Shown here: one piece after another, positions 13,996-59,279 of the stretch
Numbering within the stretch: the stretch's first letter is position 1
Layout: every line of letters starts with the position of its first letter
Source: a virus
Strand: one strand, 5' to 3'
IMG/VR virus record: IMGVR_UViG_3300029305_006221
Location: 64,001-128,000 of that record
Length of the DNA stretch: 64,000 bases
Translations under genes and position numbers: made by a program
Notes under the pieces: generated by a model
What the model was told of the DNA's origin: nothing
Databases searched by the model: none
Seen by the model: the letters and a program-made list of their open reading frames with translations, nothing else

Positions 13996-14022
13996 CAAAA
14001 GGAGATAAAAGGAGATTATTAT

Positions 14023-30620: not shown

Positions 30621-30642
30621 AAGAGAGAAAAGGAGAGATAAT

Positions 30643-33600
30643 ATGAGTAATATAGTTGAAAATTTATTTTCAGCGGTTGATATTCAAATTGATAGTAAAT
30701 TGCGCCAAACGGACTATACGCGCACCATAATAGGAACTGTCATTGGATGCATTGACCCAGAATAGCGTATTTATAAGATAAACTATCAAGATACTATATT
30801 TGAAGCTTAGGCGCCGACTGGAGAATATGGTAAAGATGAGAAAGTTAAGATACTTACCACCAATGTTGAAGATGAGTCACTTAAAGTGATTGTTGGGCGC
30901 ACCTCAGTTAGTGATTTAACCACTTTAAAAGAGAGCTCTTTATATACCTCTTTAGGCTCTTCTATTGTAGAGGATAATGAAGAGGATGATATTGTTGAAT
31001 ATACTCTTTCTGATTCTAAAACAATACTTTATGAAAAAGGCGAGTCTAATAACCTTTTGAAAGTGAATGAGACTTTATTAGAAAAGCATCTTAAAGAGTC
31101 TATGATGTTTTCTATTGGCGCAGAAGTTTTAGCTGAACTAAGTTCTGGAAGTATAGATTTAGTTTTTGAATTAAGTTACAAAGGATAGCTTGTTAAATCT
31201 GCTGTAAAAATAGAAATTACTCAAAATAGCTTTGATTTTAAATCTTATCAAAGTTATTTTAAAGATTATGAATTTGATACTATTGAATCTATTTATTTGG
31301 AAAAAATAAATGAATTATCTAATTCAGAAGTATTAAAAATTAAAAATATAACCTTTAATATTATAAAAGAAAACGAAAGTGCCAATCGTATGTAGGCGGT
31401 TATCCATGGATATGAAGGAGATACTCTTCACGATAAAGTAGAGCAGATTACGATTGAGGCAAGAATGATGTAGGGCGCCACTTTTATAGATCCTGATTTA
31501 TGTGGTTTTTAGTGGTATATTGAGGATCCTTGGGAAGAGAGCGGCTGGAAAAAATTGGAAACGGCGCGCTGGTAGAGACCTATTGTATAGCTTACTTCAG
31601 AAGATATATATTATTCTCCAATGAAATATAAGGTAGAAATTACTTATGGAGAAATGATTTTTGAAGCTAATACTATTTTAAAGAATTTAACCCCTTCTTA
31701 TTCTGGTTTATATATCTCATAGCAAACAGTAGACTCTTATGAAAAAGTTCTTATTGCAATGAATGAAAATGAAAAAGAGTGTCAATATAAATGGGAACAC
31801 ATAGATGTTTATGGTCAAAAAGACACATCCTATTCTACTGAACAATAGATATCAGTGTTCTTAGATAGTAATTATAATCTTTGGAAATGCCATTACAGAG
31901 ATGGTGACAAGTATATTGGATATGCTTCTATAGTTATTAATAATGATGATTTATTATACTTGCCTGAATAGACTGTGGAATTCGCTTTTAGCGATAATGA
32001 AGATCATGCACCTTTTGATGGACCTTGGGCACCTCGTATAGGAGAAATAAGTAATATTGATAAACCAATACTTTGGAAGCGAGTTACTAAAAATATAGAA
32101 GAAGGTAAAAATACAATAGTAATAAGTTCGTGTAAAGAAAGAAATATTGCTTATATAGAGACTAAACAACAAGATCTTTATCGTATTTGGAGAGTATATT
32201 ATACTAATGGTTTTATTGAATATAATGATATGTTAATTTCAGAATAGGATGATGGATACTAGTATATTCTCTATGGAGAGAAAGATGGGTTGATTGATAT
32301 TGATAAGAAAAAAGAAGCAACTTTAGAATCGGATATAAATACTGATTATCCATATCTCTGTTATGAAAAAACAAATACTGAAACAAGGATGGTATTAGCA
32401 AAACTAGGAACCGCTGACTATACTGGAATTCCTTCATTAACCTTCTATTGGATTGGTAATAATTATCCTTATGTAGGAGTTGAAAATAGCAAGGTTTATT
32501 TTGGGAAGCCTGATAAAGAATATGACGTATGGACGACAGAGGCTTTAGAAATTGATAATGAATATAAAAATAGATATAGAACTGAATGTCCTTATAACTA
32601 GCTTGGTAAGCTACACTATAACGAAAATACTAAAGATTGGAGTAATTTCGTTTTAGATGGTAACTATTCAGTAGATGGTCTTCCAGGAGCGCCCGGCGCG
32701 CCAGGAGAGCCCGGTAAAGCCGCTAAAAGCTTTCGATTAAAAACGGATGCTTTAATTTATAAAAAATCTTCTCCAGAATATATTGCTTTTTCAATAGAAA
32801 TAAGCGGATATGAAACTTCTGAATGGGAAATTAAAGCGGAAGTTCTTAAGGATAGCATTTGGACATCTGTAAATGATTTGGGTTTTGGAATAGTTTTAAA
32901 TCCAGATTCTAAAATTTTAACATTAGAGCATATTTCATCATTATATTCTGAAATTCGCTGCACTGCAGAATTAACCTCCAAAGAAGCGGTTGATGTTGTT
33001 ACACTTACTCGAATTGAAGATGGAGAAGCTGGTTTTAATGTTATTATTTCTAATCCGAATATTATTTTTGATAAAATTAATAATACTGCAATAGAAGTTG
33101 CAGATATTGAAGTATACCAAGGGAAAGAAAAAATTGAATGCTATGACACTAAGCCTATAACAAACGATTCTTCTAAGCGCTATGTCGCAGTAGTATCAAA
33201 CAAATATCAAAAAGAAAGTTTAAATAAACCTGACAATGCTTTAATTTAGAATTTAGTATTTTAGAAATCAGCGCCAGAAGAAGAAAAGTTGACAGCAATG
33301 ATTTCTAACCCAGGCGAGTCAGGTAAATATTATTTGCAAATTGAGATATATGATAACACAATTGTAGCAAACGAAGGATCTGTCCCAGAAATAATCTTGG
33401 ACTCTAGTATTAATTGTTTGGTTATCGATAATGGTCTTCGAATTAATATTTATAGTGAAAACTACTCTTTTTAGAATGCAGAAAAAAAATCAGTTCCTTT
33501 AGAGATTGCTGTTTAGCAAGGTCTTGCAACAGTAGTAGATAGGACAGGCACAATTTTAACAAATGTTGGCTATGAATTTTAGTTTTTTCAAGAAGGTTAT

Positions 33601-35592
33601 ATTACAAAAGATGGAGAGGAAGTAAAGGATGAGACCTTTATTTAGAATATCCTAACAAAGCAAGAAGGAGCCTATTATCAAATAGAGAATCCTTGGGGAT
33701 TAGGGCTAGAGTTAGAATATACCATTTATAAGATTAAATTAAATTTTATGATTTATCTTGATGGAAAACAAATTGGAGAGAATATTTAGTGGATTTATAT
33801 CTATTATAATACAAAAGGGGAAAATTCTATTCCTTATTTAGAACTAAGCTCTTCTAATGAAACAATAATGATTGATGAAAGCTTTAATCCTATTAATAGT
33901 TTTGTTAATTATTTTAATTATTATATCAATGAAGAAAAGCAAATAATAGATATTGAAAGGTTGTCAATTTCTCCCAAATCTAATGATACCTGGGCTTATG
34001 AATATAAAAAGCTGGGCAATGATCAAGTAATTTTCACATTGTTAGATTTTCCAAAATATAACGGTGCGGAATAGTTGTTTAATATAATATATACCCCTGA
34101 AACTGGAAATCCAGTAAGAGGAATGTTTACTTTAAGAGTAGCGTAGAAAGATTTTTAGTATTAGATACTTTTTAATGAACACCCTAATGGTATTATTGAT
34201 ACAACAAATTCAAAAGCAACTGATATCTTTTTAGAAACCATATCTATAAGTTTTAAAGATGATGAAAACATATAGCAGGTTTACACTACTCCCGATTCAT
34301 TACCAAGTGGGTATTAGTTATCTTACCTAAAAAATAATGAAGAAGAAGTTATTTTTACAGGAAATGAAGAATTTTCTGTAGAACTAGGATTAACAGATAC
34401 AGTAATATTTAATTTTAAAAAATTAGATACTTCTTATGGAAATTTAATAATTTTATCAAAAACATTAAGAAGTATTTTTAATGGATCAGAACTAACTACT
34501 TATAAGGCTTTTAATACTTTGACCAATAATGGAGAAAATACTGGTATCATTTATTTAGCTAAAAATCTTGTAACAGATGGGGGAGATTATGATATTGAAG
34601 ATATGAATGGATCAAAGTATCGATATGTTCAAGTATACCCTCGTCCTATTTTTGAAGATTTTGACGGGTCTAATAAATTCTCTACCATTCCAAATGATAT
34701 TGGAGGAATAGGTATTCTTTATAATGCAGATTCTGTTGAGCTTTTTATTAATGCAAGTATGATTAAAACTGGAATTCTTAATGCAGACCTGATTAGTGCA
34801 GGAGCAATAAAGATTGGAGATAAATTCTATGCTAATGCAGATAAAACAGCGATTGATCCAGAAGTAAAAATAGGTGGTTTTAAAGTTGCAGAGACCTATT
34901 TATATTCAGGAGAACGCACCAGTGTATGGGATACTCAAGCAGAGGGCGCATATTTTGGAACTAACGGAATTTCAGTTGGAAGTGGATCCTCTGGTATGAC
35001 TGCCTCTTTTGCAGTTGACACAACAGATAAAGGCATTGTTGGAGGATGGTATTTTACTGGATAGGGTTTTTAGACTAAAGATGTATATAATCAAACTTAT
35101 GCAAATTAGTCTAGCTCTATTGATGCATTTGGGCTTGGACCGGCGCCAAGCGATCAATCAAAAGGATATTATATTTTAAACGACGGAACTGCATTTTTAA
35201 AATATCTATTATTAGAAGAATATGCTGTAACAAGTTCTGATGAAAAATATAAAAATTCTATTTCTGCTAATTTAGAAAAATATTCTATTTTATTTGATTA
35301 GCTACAGCCAGTTAGTTATAAATATAATAAAGATGAATCATAGTAGACTCATTTTGGTTTTACAGTATAGAAAACACAATAGGCTTTCTCAAAAGCTAAC
35401 TTAAATTCATAGGACTTTGCTATTGTGCAATGTTCAAACGATATAAATGGTTTAGTGTATACTGAATTCATTGCACTTAATACCTATGAAATTTAGAAAC
35501 TTAAGAAATAGGTTTCTGAATTAGAAACTCAAAACAGCAAATTGGAAGAACGTATTGCTGCACTTGAAAAAATTATTATCAATTCTAATTAA
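30643..35592 (+). CDS. giant multidomain tail protein (distal tail, tail-associated or fibre type), 1649 aa with a short collagen-like G-x-y run and a C-terminal coiled coil
   Basis: AAAGGAGAG RBS, then ATG 30643. Frame 1 is continuous through ORF-track ORFs 30886, 31975, 32290, 32878, 33289, 33868 and 34519 via TAG only. GLPGAPGAPGEPGKA at about 32680-32725. Ends at TAA 35590-35592. Confidence 0.55.
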
Positions 35593-36907: not shown

Positions 36908-37453
36908 ATGGCTAGATATAAAGGTATTTTTAAGGCTGCCGCAAACTACGAGCCATAGATTGCTGCACCTTTTGATGCAAGAATGTTAGTTGATGCGAAA
37001 GCAGATCTAACAGATAGGAGCATTTGGCAATAGAGTAATGGAGATGTCTGGGTTTACTCAGGCATGATCGTAGCTGTTGCGAATGATGAAAATAGCGAAA
37101 ATAATGGCATTTATATGCTATTAAATAGCGCGCGCTTTGAAGAAGAGTCATCTTGGCGAAAGATGTCAGATGATAGTAGTATTGCCGCGCTTGATGCTGC
37201 TATTAAAGAATTACAAGAACAGATTAAGAATATTGAAATCTCTGGAGAAGGTAGTGTATCTATTGAAGTAGATACAATGGATGATCTTCCTAAAATTGGA
37301 GATAGCGATACTACTTATTATGTTAAAGAAAACTTAAGTATCCAAAGATGGAACGAAGCTACACAATCTTATTTAGCTTTTGGCGGATAGGGTAGCGCGC
37401 CTGAATTGGATATAAAAATTATTTACGGAGGAAATGCAAATGTCACAGATTAA
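36908..37453 (+). CDS. hypothetical tail protein, 181 aa with 3 TAG
   Basis: AAGGAGG RBS, then ATG 36908. Includes ORF-track ORF 37064..37390. Ends at TAA 37451-37453. Confidence 0.45.
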
Positions 37454-38786
37454 TACTAGAATTGTATTAAGAAATGATACCAAGGCGAATTGGGAAGCAG
37501 TCAAAGATACTGCTACTCTTAAACCTGGTGAGTTTGGTGTTGAGACCGATACTGGTTTATTCAAAATCGGTAAAGAAAAGTCTGAAGGGGTTCTTTGCAC
37601 TTGGGCAGAACTTGAGTATGCAAATGATATTCCTGAGATTGATCTTTCTGACGTAACCAACGATGTTCAAGTCGTTGAAGGCACTATTGACAATCTTGTT
37701 GCTGGCAAGGTTGTTGGAGATATGGGTATTGTTAAAACTCCTCTTTATGAAGGAGCTACAACTTATACCTACACAGCTTATGTATGGAATGGCGAAGCAT
37801 GGGCGGCAATGGATGGAAACTACAATGCAGCTAATGTTTATTTTGACCAAGATTTAACTTATACTACTTCCGTAGGTGCGCTTAAACTTGCAAGCGGAAA
37901 GAACTCTGATACTTATGCGGCTAAGGGTAAATCTTTAGAGGAAGTTATTAGACGTATTATGGCAGAGACTATTGCGCCTACAATTACCCAGGCTTCCTAT
38001 GGAATGAGCGCAAGCTACACTGCAGATAATGGCACTGAGGTTGGTAGTAAAATCACTGCTCTTAAGTGGGATGGTACATTTACAGATGGTAGCTATAGCT
38101 ATGGTAGATCTTCTACTGCAGATGGTGGCGCTGGCAATGTTTCTACAACAAAAGGTGCAGGATGTACTGCAACTTATTCAATGGAATGTGATCAAGCTGG
38201 AACTACATCAACCCCTGCTACAGTAGATGGAACTTGGACTCTTACAACTCCTTTCTAGATAACTTCTACTTCAGAAGCTACTGTTGGTAAGATTACAACT
38301 CATTGTGTTATTAGTGATGCTAAATATTGGCCTATTAATAATATAAATGAAGTTGTCGATGGTAAGCTTAGTGGCAAGACTGTTGATAAGGAAAGCACTG
38401 TTAAAGTTACTGGATTCCGTGGATGGTTCTGCGGCTGGAAGAATGGAACAAACGCACTTGCTGATCCTACTGCTATTACAAGTGATCAAGTTCGTGCACT
38501 TACTAAGAAAAATGGCTCTTGGGAGAGCTCAATGAATGTATCACAAATGAAACAGATGTTCTTCTTGGCGCCTGCTGGTAAGGGTTATAAACCTGCTATT
38601 AAAGACTCTAAGACAGACGCGCCTCAGACAGTTGAAGGACCTGTTACAGTATATGTAAAGGGTGCTAATAACTATGTAGCTGCAGGTGATGAGACCACTA
38701 ATGGCGGTATGGCTTATGATATGTGGTATGTAAACAACGCAGCTGCTGCTTCTGGTAGCGCTACGCTTAATATAACAAAGGCTTAA
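37434..38786 (+). CDS. tail fibre protein with a HylP/tail-fibre-type N-terminal domain, 450 aa with 1 TAG
   Basis: N-terminus MSQINTRIVLRNDTKANWEAVKDTATLKPGEFGVETDTGLFKIGKE. ORF-track ORFs 37434..38258 and 38532..38786 are joined in frame 0. Confidence 0.6.
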
Positions 38787-38799
38787 GGAGGAATAAATA

Positions 38800-41691
38800 A
38801 TGTCGATTAGAGATGATTTTTTTGCGGCTCAAGCTAAGGCTTCTTTATGGGACGTAGCCGTCTCGATAAAGAGAGGTAATCCGCTTCCTCTTGATGCGAA
38901 TTCGGTATTCAAGGCTTACGGAACAGTAGGCGGAGCAGATTACGCTGGTTCATTACTTGAATATGTAACCGATAATCCTGTTGCTTATCCTGGTCAGATT
39001 TGCGCAGTTGTAGGAGCAGACGCTACTACTATTTATTACTTAGACCAAAATCTTGCTATTCAACCCGTTGGAATTATTCCTACTGGCGATGGTAAATCTA
39101 TTGATGTTGCTGAGGGTGGAGAAATTTCTCTTCATGGTTTTGGCGATTTAACCGCTTCTCACGTTGGATACCTTCCTCGTGTAAAGAAAGTTGTAGATGT
39201 AGCTGCGGCTGAGGATGTTGAAGAGGTATTTCATCTTGAAATTGAATGGGCGCCTGTTTCCGCGATCGTTGAAGGTGATGGTAATAGCGTAACTGAGGTT
39301 GCTGCTGGTTGCCCTTGCATTAACGTTGAAGATAAGGCAGAGGAAGATTTTGAAGGTCATAAATATGAAATTTCTCTTAACCTTTCTGCCGAAGAAGGCA
39401 ATATCCTTAAGGAAAAAGAAGACGGACTTTATGCAGAGGTTATTATTCCTGATGTCCCTGAGTATGCTGTAAAAGCAGATGAAAGAGCTGAAGGCGCGAC
39501 TGAAACTACTTATCACTTAACAAAAGACGGTACCAATGTTGATGTTGCAATTGTAGTTCCTGATGCTTATAATGATGAGGCGCTTGCAGGACGCGTTGGC
39601 GCACTTGAAGGAAAAGTAGATACTGGCGATAAGAAAGTTAGTGTTTATGTTGCTGAGCAAATTGCAAATGCAGAAGTCGGTAAATTAACAAAGATTATTA
39701 TTGATTCTGTTACTGAAGATGGCAAGGTAGTAATTGATGGAGAGACAACTGACCCTATTGAGCATATTATCTATATGCTTAAGGTTGAATCTGCTACTGG
39801 CGACATGTATAAGGAATACATGGTTATTGGCGGAGAGCTTGTTCAAACTGGCGACACAACTACAGATTTAAGCGGATATGTTACTAAGACTACTAAGATT
39901 AATGGTAAGGCGCTTGAAAGTGATATTACACTTGAATCTGATGATATTAACGTTTCAGAAAATGCTGAAACTCCAAATGCATTTGAAGGCTAGACACTTA
40001 CACAAGCTCTTAATTCTCTTTCTGAGACTGCCAATACGGCAAATAGCAAAACTGCTGAAGATATTATTGTTGAGACTGAGTCTAATGGAACTATAAAAGA
40101 TGCGATTGTTGCATTAAAAAATTCTACTATTAATGGAAAAACATTTAACGATAATCTTGGTATCGGCTCCATTTGGAGTGAAGATTAGACTAATGGAGTA
40201 ATTCTTTACGGAACGGATATTACAGTTGACGAAAACAATGATACTCGTACTATTGCAAAAGCTATCGAAGATGCAGAAGGAGCCGTTGAAACTTTAGCAA
40301 CAAATGTTGAAAGAGACTATGCCAAGAAAGCGACTACTCTGGCTGGTTATGGTATAACAGATGCTTATACTAAAACTGAAATTGATAATAAGATCGGTAC
40401 TCCTGGAGTTCCTGAGCTTAAAGATGGTGAAGGCAATACTACTCAAGAAGCTGTAGATGGTACAGGTATCTTTGCTTCTGCGTACTCTAAAGCAGAAGTT
40501 AATGCATTGCTTGATGCAGTAAGCGGAGGATCTTCTGAAACTGCCGCATCTGTTAAGAGACAATTGGATGAATATAAGACATCTAATAATGAACGCGTTT
40601 CGAATATTGAAAACCAGGTTGGTCATGATGTAAATGGTGAAACTCCTGCAACAGGACTCTTCCTTGAAGTAGATCAGGCGCGCGCTCAGGCTGATACAGC
40701 GCTTAATAATGCGCAAGCTGCTAACCAAGCAGTAACTCAACTTGCTGAAGGTCAGGTTGCAACAAATAAGTCCAATATTGAAAATCTTCAGGCACTTGTC
40801 GGTGCAATTGGAGACGGAAAAGATACCACTCTCGCAGGAAAGATTGGCGCCCTTGAGGCACACGATCAAGCTCATACTGCAGAATTTAATCTTCTTTCTG
40901 GTAAGGTAAATCAAAATAGTGAGGACATTGGTAAGAGAGCTCTTGCAGATAATGTTTATACAAAGGGTGAAGTTGATGCTAAACTTGTTCCTCTTGCACT
41001 TGCGGCAAATGTATATAGCAAGACTGACGCAGATGATAAGTTCCTTGCAAAAGCTGACGCGTATGATGATACTGCAGTTAGAGGTTTAATTACAGCTGAA
41101 GAAAACCGTGCTAAGGGAGAAGAAAATAAGCTTCAATTAGCAATAGATCATATCTATAAGGCTGGAAATGAAGAGCTTGGAACTCAAGATGAAGGTCTTC
41201 TTGCAACTGCTATTGACGATATTAAACAAAATAGTGCAAATATTACTACGCTTGTTGGCGCCGATCAAGCAAAATCAGTAAGAACAATTGCTCAAGAAGA
41301 GATTGCTTCTCAACTTGCAACAGCACCTGAAGCATTCGATACTCTACTTGAAATGGCGGAATGGCTCGGCACTCATAGCACAGATGCAGTTAATATGGAT
41401 AACCGTATTAAGGCTAATGAGGATAAGCTCGTTGGTATCGGCGGAGAAGATTAGCCTGCTACCGTACTCGATGCCATTAGAGCTGCTGAGTACACTCTTC
41501 CCGTAGCAACAGCTGAAGCACTTGGTGGTATCAAGTCTGCGGCTGATGTTGATGGCGTAGCAGTTGTTAATACGGTTTATGTAGCTAACGACGGTAAGGC
41601 AGATGTTAAGGCAATTAGTACTGATATTCTTGTTAACGGCGAGGCTGAACTCGTCCTTAATGGTGGTAATGCAGCAGGCGCAACAGCTTGA
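38800..41691 (+). CDS. long fibrous tail fibre protein, 963 aa with 3 TAG. Extended coiled-coil and Ala-rich regions
   Basis: AAGGAGG RBS, then ATG 38800. ORF-track ORFs 38800..39993 and 40507..41454 are joined in frame 1. Ends at TGA 41689-41691. Confidence 0.6.
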
Positions 41692-41794: not shown

Positions 41795-43693
41795 ATGGCA
41801 TTTGCTGATAATATTCTTAATGTAAGACTTCAACTTAAGTATGACTCTCTTGAAAATTGGGCAAGAGAAAATCCCCTTCTTAAAGCCGGTGAGGTTGCGA
41901 TTGCATATCTTCCTCCTAAGGGCAATGGAGAAGCTCCTGCTGCTACTTCTGAAGCAGTATTAATGAAGGTTGGTCCTGGTAACTTTAACAGTCTTCCTTT
42001 CACAAGCGCTCTTGCAGCTGATGTTTATGGATGGGCTAAGGAGAACGAACTTAAGTTCTCTAAAGCAGGCACAGGTAATGTTGTTTCTGGCATCGAATGG
42101 GACGCTACTCTTAATGGAAACAAGGGTGGTATTAAATTTACGACTGCTTCTGTTGCAACCTCTGAAGGATTAGAAGAAGTTCAAAATGATATCGCTGCAA
42201 TTGAAAAAGATATTTCTGATAATCGCGCAGCTTGGGCAAAGGATGATAATACAACTTATACTTTTGCTAAATCTGCAGATGGCAAGGGAATTACAATTAC
42301 TCCTTCTGAAGGTAATGGTTCTACAATTTCTTTTGCTTTCTTAACGCAAGCAGAAATTGAAGCTCTTAATTATCTTGTAAAAGCAGATATTACAACCGGT
42401 AGTGCTAATGGTACAATCGCTGTTGAAGGTGCTGATGTTGCAGTTAAGGGTCTCCAGGACGCTGCTTATACCACAGTATCTGCGCTTAATGCAACAGCTA
42501 AGGGATATGCTGATGCAGTTGAAGCTAAGATTCCTACCGAACTTGGCGTTATGTCTGTTGCTGAAGGTAATGATACAATCACTATTGGTGGTACAGCTGC
42601 TAATCCCACTATTGTGGTAACAGCGAATAAGTTTGATGCATACGGTGCAGCAGCGGCAGTTCAAACTGGTGTTGAAAATGGAACAGTTAAAGCTAAAGTT
42701 GCAGAAACGGCAGATAAAGTTGCCAACTCTTTAACTGTAGGTAGTAAAACTTATAATGGTTCTGAAGCAATTTCAATTACTGCAGCAGACCTTGGCTTAT
42801 CCAATGCTCTTCACTTTGTTGGCACATCTTATCCTTCAAACCCTGTCGCAGGTGATGTAGTTCTTGATGGTAATAAGGAATATGTTTATGATGGCTCTAA
42901 GTGGATTGAACTTGGAGATGAAAGTAGTCATGCTTTGAATACCATCACTATCACTGGAACAGATGGTCTTGAAGGCGGAGGTAATCTTACTGAAAATAGA
43001 ACTTTAAAAATTGCGGATAGCGGTGTAACTACTGTTAAGATTGCAAATGATGCAGTAACCGCTGATAAACTCGCCGATGCTATTAATACAGATATCGCCA
43101 AAGGTGTAACTGCTCATGGCTGGGGTAACCATGCCAATGCAGGTTATGCTAAGACTGCTGATCTTGGTGATCTTGCAACTCTTGATACAATTACTTCTGA
43201 AAAAGTAACTGATTTTGAAAATGCCGTCAACAACACTAACATAGGCGGAACTAATGAGGGTGTAACTGTTGCTAGCGGCCTTAACAATGCTCTTGACAGA
43301 GTTACTACTCTTGAAAGCAACAAGGTTGATAAGACAACTACTGTAAACGGTAAGGCACTTTCTGAGAGCATAAATATTTATGCAGAAAATATTCATGTTG
43401 AGTCTGATTCAGTTATGGATAGAGGCGTTACAGTTTATGACTCTCTTGAGGCAATTGCTAAAACAACGATTAATGGTGAAACAATTCTTGAAAACTTTAG
43501 TGCTGGTGATTATGCTACATCTAGACAGTTTGTTCTTAATGGTGAAACTCTTAAGATGTCTGGAACAGATACAACAACTCTTAATGCGGCAATTACTGCT
43601 CGTCAGACAGAGGCTCAGGTTAATGCTCTTATCGAGGCAGCACTTGGCGCAATTACAACAATTAACTGTGGTTCTTCTACAGAGGTTATATAA
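41795..43693 (+). CDS. tail fibre protein with a HylP-type N-terminal domain, 632 aa with no TAG
   Basis: Intact ORF. N-terminus MAFADNILNVRLQLKYDSLENWARENPLLKAGEVAIAY. Confidence 0.6.
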   Translation: MAFADNILNVRLQLKYDSLENWARENPLLKAGEVAIAYLPPKGNGEAPAATSEAVLMKVGPGNFNSLPFTSALAADVYGWAKENELKFSKAGTGNVVSGIEWDATLNGNKGGIKFTTASVATSEGLEEVQNDIAAIEKDISDNRAAWAKDDNTTYTFAKSADGKGITITPSEGNGSTISFAFLTQAEIEALNYLVKADITTGSANGTIAVEGADVAVKGLQDAAYTTVSALNATAKGYADAVEAKIPTELGVMSVAEGNDTITIGGTAANPTIVVTANKFDAYGAAAAVQTGVENGTVKAKVAETADKVANSLTVGSKTYNGSEAISITAADLGLSNALHFVGTSYPSNPVAGDVVLDGNKEYVYDGSKWIELGDESSHALNTITITGTDGLEGGGNLTENRTLKIADSGVTTVKIANDAVTADKLADAINTDIAKGVTAHGWGNHANAGYAKTADLGDLATLDTITSEKVTDFENAVNNTNIGGTNEGVTVASGLNNALDRVTTLESNKVDKTTTVNGKALSESINIYAENIHVESDSVMDRGVTVYDSLEAIAKTTINGETILENFSAGDYATSRQFVLNGETLKMSGTDTTTLNAAITARQTEAQVNALIEAALGAITTINCGSSTEVI

Positions 43694-43706
43694 TTAAATA
43701 CACATA

Positions 43707-43736
43707 AGGGTGGGTAATTCTACCCACCCTCTTTTA
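43707..43736 (+). terminator. rho-independent terminator
   Basis: AGGGTGGGTA-attc-TACCCACCCT then CTTTT. Confidence 0.7.
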
Positions 43737-43800
43737 AAAGCCACTTGAGTTTGAAAGTGATAACTCAAGAATTTAATACTTGAAAAGGAGATAGTATATT

Positions 43801-44589
43801 ATGGCTACAACTGAAGCATTAAAATTTCGTATTGTGCATAAGCACGATACCGAAGAGAATTGGCTTAAAGCCACAAACTTTATCCCTAAGCAGGGAGAAA
43901 TAATTATTTATGATATTGACGCGAATTACAATTATGAGCGTTTTAAAATAGGTGATGGCACTAGTAATGTAAATGCATTGCCTTTTGCTAATAATGGTTC
44001 TAGTGAAACTACAGAAATATATGGAGACGCTCCAAATCTTCCTCTTTTAGATGAGCAAACTTATGACCAAGCTTGTATTGTTCCATTAAAAATTAGGGTT
44101 AAAAACAATACTATTAATTATAGCGGTACTGGAAATCTTCCTTATTACCAGTATTTTGATAGAACTTTAGAAGTACCCGCATACACTATGGAAGGAACCT
44201 TTTACTCAGAGACCTTTACCGTTAGTAATTATTCTGGAGGAATGGAAGATACGACTACTTATACTGTTAGTATAACTTTTAATAGAGGAAATTGGACGAT
44301 TAATAATGATTCTAATGGTATAATTACCTTTTTAATGGATGAAGAATTAACAACGGTAGGCGCAGGTAGGGCGCTAAGAGAAACATCCGATAGATTTAGT
44401 GTTACGACAGCATGGGATGGATCAAATGATGTTCCAGCTATTAAGGTAGGTAATACAGTTCTTACCGAAACAAAACTTAGTCAATTAATTGCGTACATTG
44501 ATGGTTTAGCAAGCGGTGATCCTGCAGTAGTTGAACCTATTGCGCAGAACTATCTTGACACGACAGTAGCAGAGGAGGCGACTTGGTAA
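43801..44589 (+). CDS. tail fibre or receptor-binding protein with a HylP-type N-terminal domain, 262 aa with no TAG
   Basis: Intact ORF. N-terminus MATTEALKFRIVHKHDTEENWLKATNFIPKQGEIIIYDID. Confidence 0.55.
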   Translation: MATTEALKFRIVHKHDTEENWLKATNFIPKQGEIIIYDIDANYNYERFKIGDGTSNVNALPFANNGSSETTEIYGDAPNLPLLDEQTYDQACIVPLKIRVKNNTINYSGTGNLPYYQYFDRTLEVPAYTMEGTFYSETFTVSNYSGGMEDTTTYTVSITFNRGNWTINNDSNGIITFLMDEELTTVGAGRALRETSDRFSVTTAWDGSNDVPAIKVGNTVLTETKLSQLIAYIDGLASGDPAVVEPIAQNYLDTTVAEEATW

Positions 44590-45689
44590 TGGGATTTAAT
44601 GAAAAAATGACTACATTAGCAGATGAAGTGAGAACGCTAAGTGGCGCTACTGAGGAAAAGAGTCTTGATGATTTAATATCTGATACTACTGCGGCTAATA
44701 GTGAGGTTGATGCGCAGACCGAGTTAATTGAACAGATTATGACTGCGCTTGATGGTAAGGCTGGCGGCTCAGGAGGAACAGTTCTTCCTACTCTTGATAA
44801 TCCTGCAAGTGCTACAGACATTCTTAGTGGAAAAGAAGCTATTGATGGTGAAGGTAATAAGATTACTGGTTCAATTGCTACTAAAACATCAAGTGATTTA
44901 ACTGCAAGCGGTTCTACGGTTACGGTTCCCGCAGGATATTATGCAAGTAACGCAAGTAAGTCTGTAGCTACTGTTACTCAAGCAACTCCTACAGTGTCGG
45001 TTAGCGCCAGTGGTTTAATTACAGCAAGTGCCACACAGAGCGCGGGATATGTAGCTTCAGGAACTAAGAGTGGAACTAAACAATTGACCACTAAAACAGC
45101 GACCACTTATACTCCTACTACTTCGAATCAAACAATATCAAGTGGAATTTATTTAACTGGCACTCAGACTATTAAAGGCGATGCAAATCTTAAAGCTGAA
45201 AATATTGCTTCTGGAGTTAGCATTTTTGGAGTAGCTGGAACTCATAGCGGAAGTGAAAATCTTGATACTGAATTAACTGAACAAGAAAGTTTAATTTCAG
45301 AGTTAAGCACTATCTTAGATAGTAAAGCAAGCGGAGGCTCTGGTGGAGGGAGCATAGAGACTTGCACTGTAACTATAAGCAGCAATTCATCATTTAATGG
45401 TATTTGGATTATATTTTATAATTCTTTAGAAAATAATTCCATTATAGGAAAAAAAAGTGACTTCCTTCTTAATTCTACATCTACAATAACTGTTAATGCG
45501 CTACAAGGCTCTGTAATTACCATAGTTGCTTTCGACATAGGGGTTTTTAACGACTATGGTATGAGTAATTGTAGTGTTTCCAATGGAGGCAATTTGTTAC
45601 ATGTGATGCAAGATTCTGTAAATATTGTAAATGTCGGTCTTGTAATCCAACTACCAAATGAAAACGATTGTACTATAACCTGTAGTTAA
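44583..45689 (+). CDS. receptor-binding-protein paralogue A, 368 aa with no TAG. Contains GGSGG linkers
   Basis: Intact ORF. The module ATQATPTVSVSASGLITASATQSAGYVASGTKSGTKQL...TIKGDANL is paralogous to the 46096..47151 gene. Confidence 0.5.
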   Translation: MVMGFNEKMTTLADEVRTLSGATEEKSLDDLISDTTAANSEVDAQTELIEQIMTALDGKAGGSGGTVLPTLDNPASATDILSGKEAIDGEGNKITGSIATKTSSDLTASGSTVTVPAGYYASNASKSVATVTQATPTVSVSASGLITASATQSAGYVASGTKSGTKQLTTKTATTYTPTTSNQTISSGIYLTGTQTIKGDANLKAENIASGVSIFGVAGTHSGSENLDTELTEQESLISELSTILDSKASGGSGGGSIETCTVTISSNSSFNGIWIIFYNSLENNSIIGKKSDFLLNSTSTITVNALQGSVITIVAFDIGVFNDYGMSNCSVSNGGNLLHVMQDSVNIVNVGLVIQLPNENDCTITCS

Positions 45690-45707
45690 TAAGGAGGTAA
45701 ATAAATA

Positions 45708-46076
45708 ATGTCAAATAAAACAAGATTACAAACAAATAACACCAACCTCCAAGCACTTATAGATAAGGCAAACGCACTTCCTGATGCTGGCGGAGGTTCT
45801 GGCGGAGGAGGAGACTTGGAAACTTGTACTCTTACATTATCCAGTATGGGCGTACCCACGGGCGACGAAATAGTTTATTATATAGATGACACTTTAACGC
45901 TTCAACAATCTAGTTTTCCCGCCTTTAGACAGAGTAAATCTGTAATCGTTATGAAAAATAGTATAATTTTTGTTGAATATGCGTCTGAGATCTCTGGAAG
46001 CATCGCTTCAATTGGTACTGGTACAAGTCATCAAGGATTTTTTATTTCGGGTGATGCAACTTTATCGAAAGGATAA
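45708..46076 (+). CDS. receptor-binding-protein paralogue B (short), 122 aa with no TAG
   Basis: N-terminus MSNKTRLQTNNTNLQALIDKANALPDAGGGSGGGG resembles the N-terminus of 46096..47151. Confidence 0.5.
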   Translation: MSNKTRLQTNNTNLQALIDKANALPDAGGGSGGGGDLETCTLTLSSMGVPTGDEIVYYIDDTLTLQQSSFPAFRQSKSVIVMKNSIIFVEYASEISGSIASIGTGTSHQGFFISGDATLSKG

Positions 46077-46095
46077 TGTAAAGGGGGATTAACAA

Positions 46096-47151
46096 ATGTC
46101 AAATTATAATACGCAATTACAAGCAAACAATTCCTCTTTGGAGGAAATTATAACACAGCTTAATGAGTTGCCCGATGTGGGAGGTACCGACCCTATTCTT
46201 CAAGATAAAACAGTAACTCCTTCAACGAGTCAGCAAACGGTAACTGCAGATAGCGGATATGATGGATTAGATACGGTAACTGTTAATGCAATGCCTACGG
46301 CTACACAGGCAACACCGAGTATTACTGTTAATTCAAGTGGACTGATTACTGCAACTGCAACTCAGACTGCTGGTTATGTGGCGGCAGGTACTAAATCTGC
46401 AACTAAACAGTTAGCATTTCAAGCTGCGCAAACCATTATCCCTGGTACAACTAATCAGACAATTGCATCTGGACAGTATTTAACTGGGGTGCAAACTATT
46501 AAAGGCGATGCTAATTTAGTAGCGAGCAATATCGTAAGTGGCAAGAGTATTTTTGGAGTGGTTGGTACTGCTAATAGTGGAGGTGGAAGTAGTGGCGGAG
46601 ATACAAGTGCAGAAGATGGACTAGTAACTAGAACTTTGACGACTTATACAAATGATAGAGTAACAACTATTGGAAATTATGCGTTTTATTCTTGCTCAAG
46701 CCTTACAAGCGTAAGTTTTCCACAATGTACAACTATTGGAGACTATGCGTTTCGATATTGCTCAAGCCTTACAACTGTAAATTTTCCAGCGGTTACAACT
46801 ATTGGTGCTTCTGCCTTTGTAGGTTGTTTAAAACTTGCGGGAGTGAGCTTTCCAGCAGTTACAGCTATTAACCTCGCTGCATTCCAAAACTGTTCAAACC
46901 TTACGACTGTAAGTTTTCCAAAAATTACAAATATTAGTTCTTACGCATTCCTACGTTGTTCAAAACTTGCTTCTATTTATCTTGCTGCATCTACAGTATG
47001 TTTTTTAGAAGGCTCAGACGCTTTTTCACAAACTAGTATCTGGTCAAACAAAGGCTCAATCTTCGTTCCGGCCTCCTTACTTGCTTCTTATAAAGCTGCA
47101 ACTAACTGGGTTTTCTTTTCAAATAGAATTTTTTCATATAACTTCACATAA
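46096..47151 (+). CDS. receptor-binding-protein paralogue C with a C-terminal BspA-type leucine-rich repeat domain, 351 aa with no TAG
   Basis: Intact ORF. Five or more tandem LRR units of the type TIG(N/D)YAF..CS.LT.V.FP. Shared module with 44583..45689. Confidence 0.55.
   Translation: MSNYNTQLQANNSSLEEIITQLNELPDVGGTDPILQDKTVTPSTSQQTVTADSGYDGLDTVTVNAMPTATQATPSITVNSSGLITATATQTAGYVAAGTKSATKQLAFQAAQTIIPGTTNQTIASGQYLTGVQTIKGDANLVASNIVSGKSIFGVVGTANSGGGSSGGDTSAEDGLVTRTLTTYTNDRVTTIGNYAFYSCSSLTSVSFPQCTTIGDYAFRYCSSLTTVNFPAVTTIGASAFVGCLKLAGVSFPAVTAINLAAFQNCSNLTTVSFPKITNISSYAFLRCSKLASIYLAASTVCFLEGSDAFSQTSIWSNKGSIFVPASLLASYKAATNWVFFSNRIFSYNFT
46680..46960 (+). repeat. tandem ~69-nt coding repeats encoding the BspA-like LRR units
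   Basis: Reiterated ...tgctcaagccttacaa(g/c)(c/t)gtaa(g/a)ttttcca.. units. Confidence 0.6.
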
Positions 47152-47183
47152 TATTTAAAAGAGATAAAAGGAGATAAAAGGAA

Positions 47184-48164
47184 ATGAAATTACAAATTTT
47201 AGTACCTCAGTATAAAGAAACGGAAGATATTATTAAACCATTACTTGATAGTATTGAGGTTCAACAAAATGTAAACCTAAAAGAAGATGTTGGTGTCATT
47301 ATAGTAAATGATGGCACTGATGTCCATCTATCAGAAGACTTCTTTAAGAGATATTCTTTCCCAATTGAGTATCATCTCAATGAACATAAAGGTGTTTCTG
47401 CAACTCGTAATGCTTGTCTTGATAAAGCAACTGCAGATTATGTAATGTTCTGTGATGCAGATGATATGTTCTACAATGCTTGCGGCTTATACATCATCTT
47501 CCGTGAAATAGAGAATGGTGGCTTTGATAGTTTAGTATCTGCATTCATTGAAGAGTCTCATATTCCAGATACTAAAGAACCGCTTTATATCAATCACGAT
47601 ATGGATTCTACTTTTGTGCATGGAAAAGTGCATCGTAGACAATACCTTATTGATAATAATATTCGTTGGAATGATAAGTTGACGATTCACGAGGATAGTT
47701 ATTTTAATTGTCTATGTCAGAGACTTGCAAAAGAGTTGAAGTATTCTCAGACTTCATTCTATTTGTGGCGTTGGCGCGATGCTTCGGTTTGCCGCCATGA
47801 TCCAAAGTATATTTTAAAAACCTATAACAATATGCTTGATAGTAATGATGCTCTTGTAACTCAATTCTTAAATCGCAAGAGAAAAGAGGATGCTCAATTC
47901 TATGTAGTAGGCATGATTTATGATGCATATTTCACAATGAATAAAGACGAGTGGCTAAATCAAGAGAATAAAAATTATCGTTATGCAACGGAGAGACGCT
48001 TTAAGGAGTATTGGCTAAAGTATAAAAAGTTGCATGATGAAATTCCTCAAGATATAAAAGCTCAGATTATTATGGGAATTAAGAATCGGATGTATGCTGA
48101 AGGTATGGTACTTGAAACGCTTACTTTTAACGAGTGGATTAAGCAAGTTGAAGCAATGGTGTAA
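47184..48164 (+). CDS. family-2 (GT-A fold) glycosyltransferase, 326 aa with no TAG
   Basis: Motifs VGVIIVNDGTD, CDADD (DxD) and ATRNACL. AAAGGAG RBS. Confidence 0.7.
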   Translation: MKLQILVPQYKETEDIIKPLLDSIEVQQNVNLKEDVGVIIVNDGTDVHLSEDFFKRYSFPIEYHLNEHKGVSATRNACLDKATADYVMFCDADDMFYNACGLYIIFREIENGGFDSLVSAFIEESHIPDTKEPLYINHDMDSTFVHGKVHRRQYLIDNNIRWNDKLTIHEDSYFNCLCQRLAKELKYSQTSFYLWRWRDASVCRHDPKYILKTYNNMLDSNDALVTQFLNRKRKEDAQFYVVGMIYDAYFTMNKDEWLNQENKNYRYATERRFKEYWLKYKKLHDEIPQDIKAQIIMGIKNRMYAEGMVLETLTFNEWIKQVEAMV

Positions 48165-48205
48165 AAACAAGATTTAACAGAACCCCAATTTTTTACAATG
48201 GAGGG

Positions 48206-48520
48206 ATGATAATGACTACAACTATTATATTATTGATAATAACGTCCATTTTTAACATAATTGATTATTGCCAAACAGCATACGCCATAGGACTTTTTGG
48301 ACTTGGCGTTGAGCTCAATCCAATAGGGCGCCTTATGTTTGCAGCCGATTGTGGATGGCTAAAATTAATTATTATGCCAATTTTATTGTTAGCTCTTGGC
48401 CTTATTATTAAAGCTGATAAGAGGCTGTCTTGGGAGGCTTGGCTTGTGACAATATTGTATCTTATAGTTATTATAAATAATTTTTATATGTTAATACGAG
48501 CGGGAGTATTTTTCTTCTAA
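48206..48520 (+). CDS. small polytopic membrane protein, 104 aa with 3-4 predicted TM helices. GtrA/flippase-like or holin-like
   Basis: Hydrophobic segments IILLIITSIFNII, IIMPILLLALGLII and LVTILYLIVIINNFYML. Immediately downstream of the GT2 gene. Confidence 0.45.
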   Translation: MIMTTTIILLIITSIFNIIDYCQTAYAIGLFGLGVELNPIGRLMFAADCGWLKLIIMPILLLALGLIIKADKRLSWEAWLVTILYLIVIINNFYMLIRAGVFFF

Positions 48521-54179: not shown

Positions 54180-54200
54180 ATAAAAAGCTTATAGGATAAC

Positions 54201-54973
54201 ATGAAGGGATCATTCTTCTTTTCCTATTCACTGGATGGGGAAGAAACGGCTGGGGCAATGGAGGTTCCGAAGGAGGAAGTGGATACGTTCTTAATCCCTA
54301 CTTCTATGGATTTGGCTCTAGTTCGGGCGCTTGTGCAACTAAAGACGACGTTCGCGCGGCTGTTGATCAGCAAACCCTTATTTCTAAACTTGATAACCAA
54401 ACCTACGGTCTCGCTGATAGCACTTATTCATTAAGTAATGCTATCACATCTGGATTCCATGGAGTAGATAATGCAATCTGTACTCTTGGATACCAAAATC
54501 AGGCAGGCTTTACCGCACTTGGTAATCAACTTGCACAATGCTGCTGCGACACTCGTGCCGCTATCGCAGACGTAAAAACTCAGGGTGTAATTAACACTAA
54601 TGCCCTATCTAGCCAGTTAGCGGCTTGCTGCTGTGACATTGAGAAGGCTAATATGGAAAACCGTTTTGCTGCTCAAACCTATAATTGCAACACGCTTCAG
54701 GCTATTGACAAACTTGGTGATAGAATCATTGACTTCATGACGCAAGATAAGATCGCTTCTCTTACTGCGGAGAATCAATCTCTTAAGTTTGCGGCATCTC
54801 AAGCAAATCAGAATGCATTTATCACTGCTAACCAAGAGGCTCAAACAGCAGAACTTATTCGTAGACTTGGCAGAGATTGCCCAATTCCTGCGTATGTAGT
54901 TCCAAATCCTAATTGCTGCTATACCCCTCAGGTTCAGATCGCATCTTCTAACTGCGGCTGCGGTTGCTTCTAA
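54201..54973 (+). CDS. Cys-rich, Gly-rich secreted-like protein (CCCD repeats, C-terminal NCGCGCF), about 258 aa. The start codon and the body are in different frames
   Basis: ATG 54201 with an AGGAT RBS is in frame 0. The clearly coding frame is frame 2, stop-free from 54200 to TAA 54971-54973, and includes ORF-track ORF 54653..54973. That frame has no ATG, GTG or TTG before 54653. The two frames meet around the T4 run at 54218-54221. Confidence 0.4.
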
Positions 54974-54998
54974 TCTAAGAATGGAGGCTTGAAAAAGA

Positions 54999-55418
54999 AT
55001 GGAATTAATTGCTAATGCTTTACAAACAGTTGGTGCTGGCGAAAATGTTCAGTTTACAGATGAAGTTGTTAGTGGATGTAACTCGATTCTCCATCGAGCA
55101 GGAAGTGGCTTAATTACCTTGCGCGGCATTACCAATCAGTGTCGCGCAAGATTCAAGGTTTTCTTTAGCGGAAATATTGCTATTCCTGCAGATGGAACCG
55201 TAGAAGCCATTTCAATTGCCATCTCGGTAAATGGAGAGGCTATTGCTTCAACAACTATGATTCAAACTCCTGCTGCGGTAGAGGAATTTGCAAATGTGGC
55301 TAGCGCAGCTTATATTGATGTTCCAGCAGGTTGCTGCATTTCTGTTGCAGCAAGAAACACAAGTACACAAGATATCGATGTACAAAACGCAAATTTAATC
55401 ATAGAAAGGGTGGCATAA
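54999..55418 (+). CDS. BclA C-terminal-domain-like (C1q/TNF-fold) protein, 139 aa
   Basis: Intact ORF. Ends in NANLIIERVA (compare BclA ending ...SIIIEKVA). Internal ISIAISVNGEAIA resembles BclA LTIQVNGVPV. Confidence 0.5.
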   Translation: MELIANALQTVGAGENVQFTDEVVSGCNSILHRAGSGLITLRGITNQCRARFKVFFSGNIAIPADGTVEAISIAISVNGEAIASTTMIQTPAAVEEFANVASAAYIDVPAGCCISVAARNTSTQDIDVQNANLIIERVA

Positions 55419-58797: not shown

Positions 58798-59279
58798 TAG
58801 CTAATCCTTTCTGCATATTGATTTGGACTAGCAAGTTTTACTCCAAGTATATCATCAAAGTGAGATTCCATATCTGGAATATAGCGTCCAAATTTTACAA
58901 TAATATTTGAAAAATGTTTTAATTGATTTAATTGATCTTCAATCTCATCATCATAATATCCTGTGTAAATAACAACATCATCTTCTATTAAATAACATTC
59001 TCTAAAAACAAAGAGAAAGTCATATAAGTCTTCAAAGGTATCAAAAGGCTCCAATCCTTGAAATACTATTGCATGTGTAAACGGAGTCTTTTGATATAGC
59101 TCAATAATAGAGTCTATTGAATAATCAAGAGTTGGCATATTTGCCAATGTACTATTTTGACACACTGGCATGCCGCATTCTCGATCACATTTAAAACCTT
59201 TGCAATAAGGAGTTTCTATTGTTAAAGAAGGAATTTTATAATTAACGAAATCTTCTGTTATAATTCCTTTGACTTTCAT
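58797..59279 (-). CDS. nrdG: anaerobic ribonucleotide reductase activating protein (small radical-SAM NrdG type), 160 aa
   Basis: Cys cluster YCKGFKCDRECGMPVC. Overlaps the nrdD stop. Typical nrdD-nrdG arrangement. Confidence 0.65.
   Translation of the reverse strand: MKVKGIITEDFVNYKIPSLTIETPYCKGFKCDRECGMPVCQNSTLANMPTLDYSIDSIIELYQKTPFTHAIVFQGLEPFDTFEDLYDFLFVFRECYLIEDDVVIYTGYYDDEIEDQLNQLKHFSNIIVKFGRYIPDMESHFDDILGVKLASPNQYAERIS

Follow-up and report, generated by a model that had tools for sequence, protein, structure and literature searches.

Modular genes of receptor-binding type in the tail region of a TAG-recoded phage

Results

Organisation of the locus

The 64-kb window, by which we mean the whole stretch of viral DNA that was analysed, contains three adjacent open reading frames on the + strand, each with a Shine-Dalgarno site. 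These are referred to here as A (44589..45689, 366 aa), B (45708..46076, 122 aa) and C (46096..47151, 351 aa). They are located inside a tail gene module where all the genes are on the same strand and have strong ribosome-binding sites; a tape measure protein (PhageMin_Tail) and an S74 fibre are encoded on the 5' side and a phrog_1887 tail protein on the 3' side. A preliminary description of the three reading frames stands as a whole, with corrections to the start of A, to the distribution of modules and N-termini among the proteins and to the size of the TAG-free block in which they lie. Gene A had been given a TTG start at 44583. The most likely start is the ATG at 44589, which overlaps the preceding stop codon (TAATG) and has GAGGAGG 10 nt upstream; public gene calls for A also give 366 aa.

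The stop codon in that overlap belongs to a gene (43801..44589, +) whose 262-aa product has an N-terminal domain of the Mtd_N type and is conserved in other viral contigs over residues 1-65 only (51-81%). Upstream of this is the gene for a fibre protein of 632 aa (41795..43693, +), the N-terminus of which is weakly Mtd_N-like. These two and the product of the gene at 37434 had been described as sharing a HylP-type N-terminus. A common motif, R..D...NW....K.GE...K.G, is indeed visible in the alignment of the three, but the Pfam family is Mtd_N (PF18454, cut-off 26.3 bits), which is significant for the 37434 gene (34.0 bits) and sub-threshold for the 43801 (23.2 bits) and 41795 (12.5 bits) genes. 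Downstream of C are a family-2 glycosyltransferase, GT2 (47184..48164, +; Pfam Glycos_transf_2, E=5.5e-14), and a small hydrophobic DUF5658 protein (48206..48520, +; 27.5 bits against a cut-off of 25.2).

Domain architecture of A, B and C

Protein A begins with two helices, followed by a GGSGG linker (residues 59-63), a 'pre' unit and a module that we term the shaft (residues 125-218; 44961..45242, +). The C-terminal part (45255..45686, +) consists of helix 2 (45255-45329), an SGGSGGGS linker (residues 248-255; 45330-45353) and the ETCT beta-domain that forms the tip (45354-45686), a beta-sandwich with resemblance to adhesins and pilins. Protein B, which has the ribosome-binding site AAGGAGG, is composed of an N-terminal helix (45708-45788), the linker GGGSGGGG (residues 28-35; 45789-45812) and, at the C-terminus, a beta-domain of ETCT type that is hypervariable (45813-46073). 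In protein C an N-terminal helix (46096-46179) and a short 'pre' unit precede a shaft module (46288-46572), the linker SGGGSSGG (residues 161-168; 46573-46599) and a BspA-type leucine-rich-repeat (LRR) tip (46600-47148). The Gly/Ser linkers that had been reported between the modules could be located in all three proteins.

The shaft modules of A and C align over 94 aa (127-220 of A, in the numbering of the preliminary description, with 65-158 of C) with 68% identity (E=8e-36) and have identical predicted strand patterns after a 60-residue offset. Their DNA is 67% identical over 297 nt, in keeping with the earlier proposal of an old duplication as opposed to an active repeat. The module had been assigned to all three genes; it is present in A and C and absent from B. 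Similarly, the N-terminal segment MSN...LPD.GG, thought to be common to the three, is shared by B and C, for which the helix of ~28 aa is 53% identical over 30 aa (E=3e-7), while A differs in having the longer two-helix segment.

B is related to A through its other end. Comparison of the two families with hhalign gave a probability of 97.8% (E=1.3e-12), or 96.3% with the helix included, and B is, as judged from these profiles, a stand-alone copy of the C-terminal third of A (helix, Gly linker and ETCT beta-domain). This homology is a link that was absent from the preliminary description.

The C-terminal 180 aa of C are a bona fide BspA-type LRR, with a predicted solenoid fold. The tandem units of 22 aa (66 nt; 46660..46989, +) comprise five regular repeats, with a degenerate sixth and a cap, in agreement with the at least five BspA-like units noted originally; a repeat search found four tandem 66-nt units at 46663-46926. 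Pfam LRR_5 (PF13306) matches residues 190-313 with 96.8 bits (cut-off 27.7; E=1.2e-27), and the profile of C matches BspA-type structures in the PDB (4fs7, 3.7e-59; 4gt6, 4.9e-46; TpLRR, 5.3e-23). In the AF2 model, calculated as for the other proteins on the monomer, the mean pLDDT is 85, with 97-98 for the LRR and <50 for the linker, and there is a beta-strand rung for every 22 residues. The tip has the same 22-residue units as the BspA-type LRR proteins (4fs7, 4gt6, 4fdw, 4h09 and TpLRR 6mlx), but in C it is fused to the helix, shaft and linker of a phage fibre and a secretion signal is absent.

Relatives and pattern of conservation

No Pfam, PHROG or NCBIfam model was found for the shaft module, nor did B match any family in these collections at the thresholds used, Tfa and chaperone models among them. 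Amongst 50,697 GenBank phage records there was no match for A and C matched by its LRR only; no characterised homologue of A, B or C was found. The shaft module is, on the other hand, present in 9,264 cluster representatives (clusters at 50% identity), a single protein having as many as 24 matched stretches, and its units recur in proteins of up to ~1,800 aa with many repeats. Relatives of A number more than 4,771 and the modules are shuffled among them. All the relatives from genome assemblies are from Clostridia MAGs, and the BFVD matches, from gut viromes, are auto-annotated as 'Tail protein'.

Across these relatives the proximal parts are conserved and the distal domains much more variable. 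The mean pairwise identity in the A family is 0.70-0.75 for the shaft as against 0.17 for the tip, in the B family alignment 0.86 for the N-terminal helix as against 0.25 for the C-terminal domain, and in the C family 0.72 for the shaft as against 0.57 for the LRR. Judged from the alignments, this gradient from conserved anchor to variable tip is the pattern typical of virion receptor-binding proteins, and it supports the original description of the genes as putative modular, paralogous proteins of tail-fibre or receptor-binding type with variable distal domains.

The order A-like, B-like and C-like (LRR) is kept in distant phages (L015/L018, L016/L017, L003, L031 and L077/78). The preliminary description had likened the locus to host-range cassettes with alternative distal domains carried side by side. 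This does not fit with the conserved order, nor with each position having its own architecture. Together with the common orientation and the separate ribosome-binding sites, these features suggest that A, B and C are co-expressed parts of one multi-adhesin apparatus.

Natural recombinants

Comparison of the locus between phages, which had been proposed as a way of detecting module swapping, revealed two independent contigs, L008 (JGI) and L013 (ENA), in which a different LRR tip is joined exactly at the junction of the C module and linker. Both are short (8.0 and 3.0 kb; samples 3300024270 and ERZ27248436) and the recombinants are known from these contigs alone. Their sequence is of the window type as far as the end of the C module, where 44 nt (46528..46571, +; encoding NIVSGKSIFGVVGTA) are identical in both parental phages; beyond these they match a co-occurring standard-code phage, of the L015 type, at 98.8%. 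A three-way alignment has 167 informative sites of the window type followed by 94 of the L015 type, and the two kinds do not intermix: the window type ends at site 46527 and the L015 type starts at 46572. The junction is exact in both contigs. These contigs show a natural exchange of the distal domain at a conserved junction, as expected of receptor-binding proteins. Among near-identical phages C is either 351 or 455 aa long, the recombinant allele being longer by ~104 aa and differing in the number of LRR units. In L008 GT2 was exchanged along with the LRR tip.

The standard code applies over 36 kb of L015, the donor-type phage, which has only A-B-C-GT2-DUF5658 in common with the window. Its GT2 is 89% identical in amino acid sequence to that of the window and its DUF5658 protein 45%. 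At the DNA level GT2 is 73-83% identical (per 100-nt window) to the L015-type copy of the recombinant, and the GC3 of the fibre block is the same as that of its neighbours. These two observations indicate that the block has long been resident and is not a recent import.

Absence of TAG codons

Reading through TAG raises the coverage by long open reading frames from 0.51 to 0.94. In-frame TAG codons number 7 each in the terminase and portal genes and 69 in that of the tape measure protein. The source phage is therefore TAG-to-Gln recoded (translation table 15), though no tRNA genes, and hence no suppressor tRNA(CUA), were found in the 64-kb window. As first noted, none of A, B and C has an in-frame TAG. 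The TAG-free block is larger than these three genes, extending over seven (41795-48520), from the fibre gene at 41795 (0 TAG among 8 Gln codons) to that of the DUF5658 protein. Within it TAG accounts for 0 of 62 Gln codons, compared with 206 of 604 (34%) elsewhere (P=5.9e-12). In L003, a second recoded phage, the fibre, A-like and B-like genes are also TAG-free. The capsid genes (10887-14598) are TAG-free too, so exchange between phages of different codes cannot be the only cause of TAG avoidance.

The phage is ~136 kb and long-tailed, and its host is probably among the Clostridia. It resembles TAG-to-Gln recoded large gut phages such as Phass-1 (PMC10607447) in the genome size of ~136 kb, in the predicted Clostridia host and in having in-frame TAG in fibre and tape measure genes as well as in those of the terminase and portal. 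With TerL 42% identical and no DNA-level match to the window, Phass-1 is a distant relative only. Neither a TAG-free fibre block nor exchange with standard-code phages is mentioned in the passages of the paper considered here.

Discussion

It would seem rather likely that A, B and C are expressed together as distal tail-fibre or adhesin proteins of the recoded phage, with helix anchors, optional shafts and swappable tips, and that the tips are exchanged by recombination between phages. Each protein has a short conserved alpha-helical anchor at its N-terminus, in some cases conserved beta 'shaft' units, and then a Gly/Ser linker, which is flexible, leading to a binding tip that varies. This tip is predicted to be a beta-sandwich of Ig/CnaB-like type in A and B; in C it is a BspA-type LRR solenoid. 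We infer their presence in the virion from context, namely the position in the tail module and the auto-annotated 'Tail protein' relatives in BFVD. Docking onto a fibre scaffold of the upstream Mtd_N-type proteins is the probable role of the helices, and the tips probably bind host cell-wall glycopolymers or surface proteins. The conserved pieces would double as patches of homology: when phages that infect the same cell recombine where the shaft module ends, the tip is replaced together with the linked GT2 and DUF5658 genes, which would alter the host range.

This would be an ordinary kind of system. In siphophages of Gram-positive bacteria the receptor-binding proteins are conserved in their proximal part and vary in the distal domain that binds, and the tip is exchanged by recombination at Gly-rich or conserved junctions, with a change of host range as the outcome. 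In the host-specificity protein of Streptococcus thermophilus phages the variable region VR2 is flanked by collagen-like Gly-rich repeats, and lactococcal receptor-binding proteins undergo head swapping. The same proximal/distal plan with crossover at the junction is seen here, where it is mapped in natural recombinants, but no sequence similarity to the siphophage proteins was found, the anchor is a helix of ~28 aa with a GGSGG-type linker, the shaft is built of previously unmodelled beta-units and parts are common to three separate genes. The fibre tip genes gp37/gp38 of the T-even phages are mosaics with conserved glycine-rich motifs, and there too hypervariable binding segments lie between short conserved motifs that favour exchange between phages. 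The folds and hosts are different, however, and one fibre tip carries gp38 as its sole adhesin or chaperone, compared with several independent proteins with LRR and Ig-like tips here. In the branched systems of Kuttervirus CBA120 (TSP1-4), phage G7C (gp63.1/gp66) and Klebsiella phage phiK64-1, several neighbouring genes specify distinct binding proteins, which have conserved N-terminal segments for attachment in common and are mounted together on one virion. A, B and C would be alike in this, presumably also in their attachment, but are small, with tips predicted to be non-enzymatic, while the former are large trimeric tailspike enzymes with defined N-terminal adaptor domains. What is new is the domain family and the exchange across genetic codes.

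B may have a different role. The Tfa proteins of Mu, P2 and lambda are tail fibre assembly proteins, and B is likewise small, directly 3' of a fibre gene and has one conserved and one variable end. B could then be a partner or assembly factor of A and not an independent adhesin, its beta-domain pairing with the tip of A either as a chaperone or to complete a heteromeric tip. The homology of its C-terminal domain to A's own tip and the order of A-like then B-like genes across phages are consistent with this, and hypervariability is expected of a domain that co-evolves with a variable partner. We consider it unlikely, since the N-terminal helix and linker are the same as those of the LRR protein C, which suggests the same docking role, and some phages have two small helix+ETCT proteins or none beside an ETCT-tipped protein (L098, L077). 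Moreover B matches no Pfam, PHROG or NCBIfam model, and it differs from Tfa in being a paralogue of the fibre's own tip with an N-terminus common to another tip-bearing protein.

Another possibility is that A-B-C-GT2-DUF5658 is a non-structural 'moron' module, providing the infected or lysogenic bacterium with BspA-like adhesins and envelope glycosylation for surface modification, adhesion or superinfection exclusion. The five genes travel as a unit between unrelated phage backbones, and being TAG-free they could be translated by host ribosomes without a phage suppressor. BspA-type LRR proteins, including the PDB relatives of C, are classically bacterial surface adhesins, and GT2 with a small membrane protein is reminiscent of phage serotype-conversion genes. 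Surface-glycan modification genes of the Gtr type pair a GtrB-like GT2 with a small membrane protein of the GtrA family; here the GT2 domain is present, inspection of the sequence showed no C-terminal membrane helices in GT2, and the best Pfam match of the small membrane protein is DUF5658, no GtrA family being reported. By inspection the N-termini of A, B and C are hydrophilic and helical, the proteins lack a signal peptide, any transmembrane segment and any wall-sorting motif, and the genes are translationally coupled to a fibre gene within the tail module. Shaft units that recur in long many-repeat proteins and 'Tail protein' entries, and the conservation gradient described above, also argue against a surface protein of the bacterium, and we regard this explanation as quite improbable. 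More improbable still is a programmed switch of host range, by DGR mutagenesis or by invertase or shufflon-type exchange within one genome. The upstream Mtd_N-type domain is named after the DGR target protein Mtd and several paralogous tips adjoin one another, but every gene has its own start site and lies on the same strand, the DNA identity of the paralogous segments is just 67% and the tips are not predicted to be C-type lectin folds. No DGR template/variable pair of direct repeats was found in the 64-kb window, and a check for inverted repeats flanking 44.5-47.2 kb, which had been suggested, found none. An invertible switch of the Mu Gin, P1 Cin or shufflon type was rejected on the absence of these repeats and the + orientation of all the genes, each with its own ribosome-binding site. 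Within the window the programmed switch is largely refuted; changes of host range look like the result of recombination between phages.

We suggest, tentatively, that the fibre block, at least A-B-C-GT2-DUF5658 and perhaps from 41795 onwards, belongs to a gene pool common to phages of different codes and is kept TAG-free by repeated exchange with standard-code phages, since an in-frame TAG would truncate the protein in the latter. The occurrence of the five genes in otherwise dissimilar phages, at least one of them with the standard code, fits with a block free of TAG; that exchange is the cause is something we infer. If true, host-range modules would be 'code-neutral', crossing freely a genetic-code boundary that the rest of a recoded genome cannot, and the L008/L013 recombinant would be a direct example of cross-code exchange.

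Very little is known of the host range of uncultured Clostridia phages from gut and rumen, and the locus offers three handles on it. The shaft family (~9,000 clusters) and the helix/Gly-linker 'connector' that marks receptor-binding proteins could become profile models for annotation and host prediction. The mapped natural crossover is a guide to sites for tip swapping, useful in engineering. Exchange of fibre tips across codes, taken with the absence of TAG, would make the link of recoded phages to the common phage gene pool a testable question.

Architecture of the putative fibre genes

Genes A, B and C lie next to one another on the plus strand (44589..45689, 45708..46076 and 46096..47151) and are real open reading frames. 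For A, the start given in the preliminary description was not upheld: translation most likely begins at the ATG at 44589, giving 366 aa. This ATG overlaps the preceding stop (TAATG), with GAGGAGG lying 10 nt before it, and public gene calls begin there too. An internal module had been ascribed to all three proteins. It is present in A and C as a 94-aa unit, here called the shaft module (68% amino acid identity, E=8e-36; 67% for the DNA over 297 nt), and the strand patterns of the two AF2 models coincide exactly after a 60-residue shift; B is without it. The N-terminal segment, likewise assigned to all three, is common to B and C as a helix of 28–30 aa (53% identity, E=3e-7), in which, for B, L7, L14, L17/I18, A21 and L24 form a short heptad-like pattern when the sequence is read by eye. 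The whole of B matches the C-terminal third of A (profile comparison, hhalign probability 97.8%, E=1.3e-12), which is made up of a second helix, a Gly/Ser linker and a beta-domain starting with an ETCT motif (the ETCT domain). The Gly/Ser linkers are where they had been placed, and appear as low-confidence hinges in the AF2 models. The tip of C is a clear BspA-type leucine-rich repeat (LRR), as had been proposed, with Pfam LRR_5 scoring 96.8 bits against a cut-off of 27.7. It comprises five regular 22-aa units, a degenerate sixth and a cap (pLDDT 97–98), its best PDB relative being 4fs7 (3.7e-59).

The three upstream genes said to begin with the same domain do have an N-terminus in common. It is of the Mtd_N type, and one gene passes the Pfam threshold while two miss it. 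In the protein encoded from 43801 only the first ~65 residues, the Mtd_N-type domain (43801–44000), have conserved counterparts (51–81%) on further large viral contigs (L105–L118), some of which are TAG-recoded too. The remainder is unique, a further case in which the anchor is conserved and the distal part varies.

Conservation and gene order

The helix, shaft units and ETCT domain gave nothing significant in Pfam, PHROG, NCBIfam or the PDB sequences. More than 4,771 metagenomic relatives of A were found, and the 124-aa 'pre+module' segment of C matches 9,264 representatives of 50%-identity clusters (4,437 at E<=1e-10), in proteins with up to 24 matched stretches and up to ~1,800 aa. The parts are combined variously amongst these relatives: shaft units number one to six, a second helix is present or absent, and tips are of the ETCT, LRR or another type. 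A tblastn search of GenBank phages gave no match for A and matched only the LRR part of C; a structure search of BFVD gave low TM-scores, the only named relatives being virome contigs auto-annotated 'Tail protein'. The literature yielded nothing specific on BspA-like phage receptor-binding proteins. Identity across relatives is 86% for the helix of B against 25% for its tip, 70–75% for the shaft of A against 17% for its tip, and 72% for the shaft of C against 57% for its LRR. Such conserved anchors and shafts with variable tips are what receptor-binding proteins usually show.

Gene order was compared through an HMM scan of 94 fetched loci. The order A-like, B-like, an optional extra gene and then C-like with an LRR is found in L015/L018, L016/L017, L003, L031 and L077/78, and in many cases a short fibre-anchor gene precedes the A-like gene and overlaps it. 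The suggestion that alternative distal binding domains are carried side by side is not borne out, as the A-B-C order recurs in other phages; from this conserved order, A, B and C make up a set with distinct roles and are not alternative copies of one gene. A fixed A/B/C heterotrimer assembled through the three helices is disfavoured, since related loci hold two to four helix-bearing genes. Many metagenome contigs (L001, L002, L009–L014, L126) end inside or beside A-B-C, which suggests that strain-level variation breaks assemblies at this locus.

Exchange of the C tip

Comparison across phages for module swapping identified two contigs with a different C tip joined at the module/linker junction. 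Among ten contig placements with an identical gene B, eight are of the window type and two differ: L008 (JGI 3300024270, 7,994 bp) and L013 (ENA ERZ27248436, a MEGAHIT contig). From 43208 to ~46530 L008 is essentially identical to the window, with a single mismatch. Past ~46530 the identity falls abruptly to 65–80%, and the whole remainder of L008 matches L015 at 98.8% identity; L015 is an IMG/VR contig whose sample also yielded the 136-kb contig of the window. When the three sequences are aligned, 167 window-type informative sites come first and 94 of the L015 type follow, unmixed. The crossover lies within 46528–46571, 44 nt identical in both parents that encode NIVSGKSIFGVVGTA, the last strand of the shaft module, directly before the Gly/Ser linker. 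This 44-nt core has the L015 type as its only carrier in IMG/VR. The recombinant junction is identical base for base in the two independent assemblies, and a read-length artefact is unlikely because the informative sites flanking it are only 45 nt apart. In the recombinant the LRR tip of C is replaced, making the protein ~104 aa longer (351 to 455 aa), and the downstream genes for a family-2 glycosyltransferase (GT2) and a DUF5658 protein are carried along.

Genetic code, relatives and likely host

The window comes from a large phage in which TAG is a sense codon. Reading through TAG raises the coverage by long ORFs from 0.51 to 0.94 and restores the terminase, the portal, a 3,168-aa tape measure (69 TAG) and a 1,657-aa fibre protein (38 TAG). 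A 135,988-bp JGI contig (L006) is 100% identical to the window. A near-identity DNA search with the fibre region and tape measure gene found no DNA-level relatives among 50,697 GenBank phage records. The terminase is 70% identical to that of a single unannotated human-faecal contig and 42–45% identical to those of ~135–140-kb Firmicutes siphophages (Geobacillus E3, Enterococcus H1) and of Phass-1, which PMC10607447 describes as a TAG-recoded phage. The strong Shine-Dalgarno sites preceding the genes and the relatives in genome assemblies, all of them Clostridia MAGs (Oscillibacter, Faecousia, Oscillospiraceae and others), point to a host amongst the Clostridia. ARAGORN found no tRNA genes in the 64-kb window, although the phage requires TAG suppression, so any suppressor tRNA must sit in the remaining ~72 kb of the 136-kb genome.

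Other features of the window were noted. The tape measure (21085–30588) matches PhageMin_Tail (E=7e-32); at the usual ~0.15 nm of tail per residue its length would predict a tail measuring several hundred nm, which is exceptionally long. The 1,657-aa protein (30622–35592) ends in a Peptidase_S74 intramolecular chaperone domain (E=8.5e-9) and includes a short collagen-like stretch, GAPGAPGEPG. On the minus strand (59276–62362) the anaerobic ribonucleotide reductase NrdD (E=4.9e-86) is split by a ~330-aa insertion, probably an intein, with a sub-threshold Intein_splicing match (31.8 against 35.8 bits).

A block shared across genetic codes

Across 36 kb of the L015-type phage all long genes are free of in-frame TAG, among them ORFs of 1,366, 856, 855, 771 and 653 aa, and the phage thus uses the standard code. 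It has only A-B-C-GT2-DUF5658 in common with the window phage (A 53%, C 58%, GT2 89%, DUF5658 45% protein identity; B alike in the helix only), with 24–30% capsid-level matches and a different gene order outside. One block is therefore found in two very different backbones with different codes. On recombination across genetic codes the literature yielded nothing specific.

In the seven genes from 41795 to 48520 TAG serves for none of 62 Gln codons, against 206 of 604 (34%) in the other plus-strand genes of the window (P=5.9e-12). The same is seen in a second recoded phage, L003, where the fibre, A-like and B-like genes are TAG-free beside TAG-rich neighbours. A foreign origin by composition was rejected: the block has the same GC3 as its neighbours, and its higher GC reflects Ala/Gly/Thr-rich proteins. 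Given this GC3, and GT2 DNA only 73–83% identical (per 100-nt window) to the recombinant's L015-type copy despite the 89% protein identity, the block is an old resident under purifying selection. CAG to TAG is a single transition, and no such change is fixed in the block; we infer that either selection acts here against TAG or the genes have been replaced repeatedly from standard-code phages. Capsid genes lack TAG as well, so that exchange alone cannot account for TAG avoidance.

The distribution of TAG is patchy and cannot be reduced to a plain early/late division. Amongst the plus-strand genes of 4566–56157, TAG-free groups outside the fibre block are the capsid/scaffold genes (10887–14598), the gene at 17718–18635 and 54200–55418. 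Towards the block TAG use declines gradually with no sharp border, being low in the protein at 37416–38786 (1 of 11 Gln codons) and in a 965-aa fibre-like protein at 38797–41691 (3 of 28). LRR genes are not always TAG-free in recoded phages, since on the 132-kb L003 contig a ~1,400-aa protein rich in BspA-type LRRs (2129–6472) has 13 in-frame TAG. GT2 (47184..48164) and DUF5658 (48206..48520), a small membrane protein, are TAG-free genes inside the tail gene module, whose possible roles are modification of the host surface or glycosylation of the Thr/Ser-rich fibre proteins.

Discussion

It seems fairly likely that A, B and C are co-expressed distal fibre or adhesin proteins, each of which would dock onto the fibre scaffold through its N-terminal helix, with Gly/Ser linkers supplying reach and flexibility and tips binding structures on the host surface. 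The conserved helix and shaft ends may double as recombination patches through which tips move between co-infecting phages. B could instead be a partner or chaperone of the homologous tip of A, which we think rather unlikely. That the block is a non-structural accessory module, through which the host cell would gain adhesins and a glycosyltransferase, appears less probable still. A programmed switch is very improbable: no inverted repeats were found around the locus, in agreement with the preliminary description, and the window has no direct or inverted repeats suited to a DGR or a shufflon.

For the reading as distal fibre proteins with exchangeable tips, it is already well known that modular receptor-binding proteins evolve by recombination at conserved junctions. 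What is new is a very large shaft/connector family without a profile model, a stand-alone copy of a fibre's own tip, and, along with a fibre block free of TAG, a tip exchange mapped between one phage that is TAG-recoded and another that uses the standard code.
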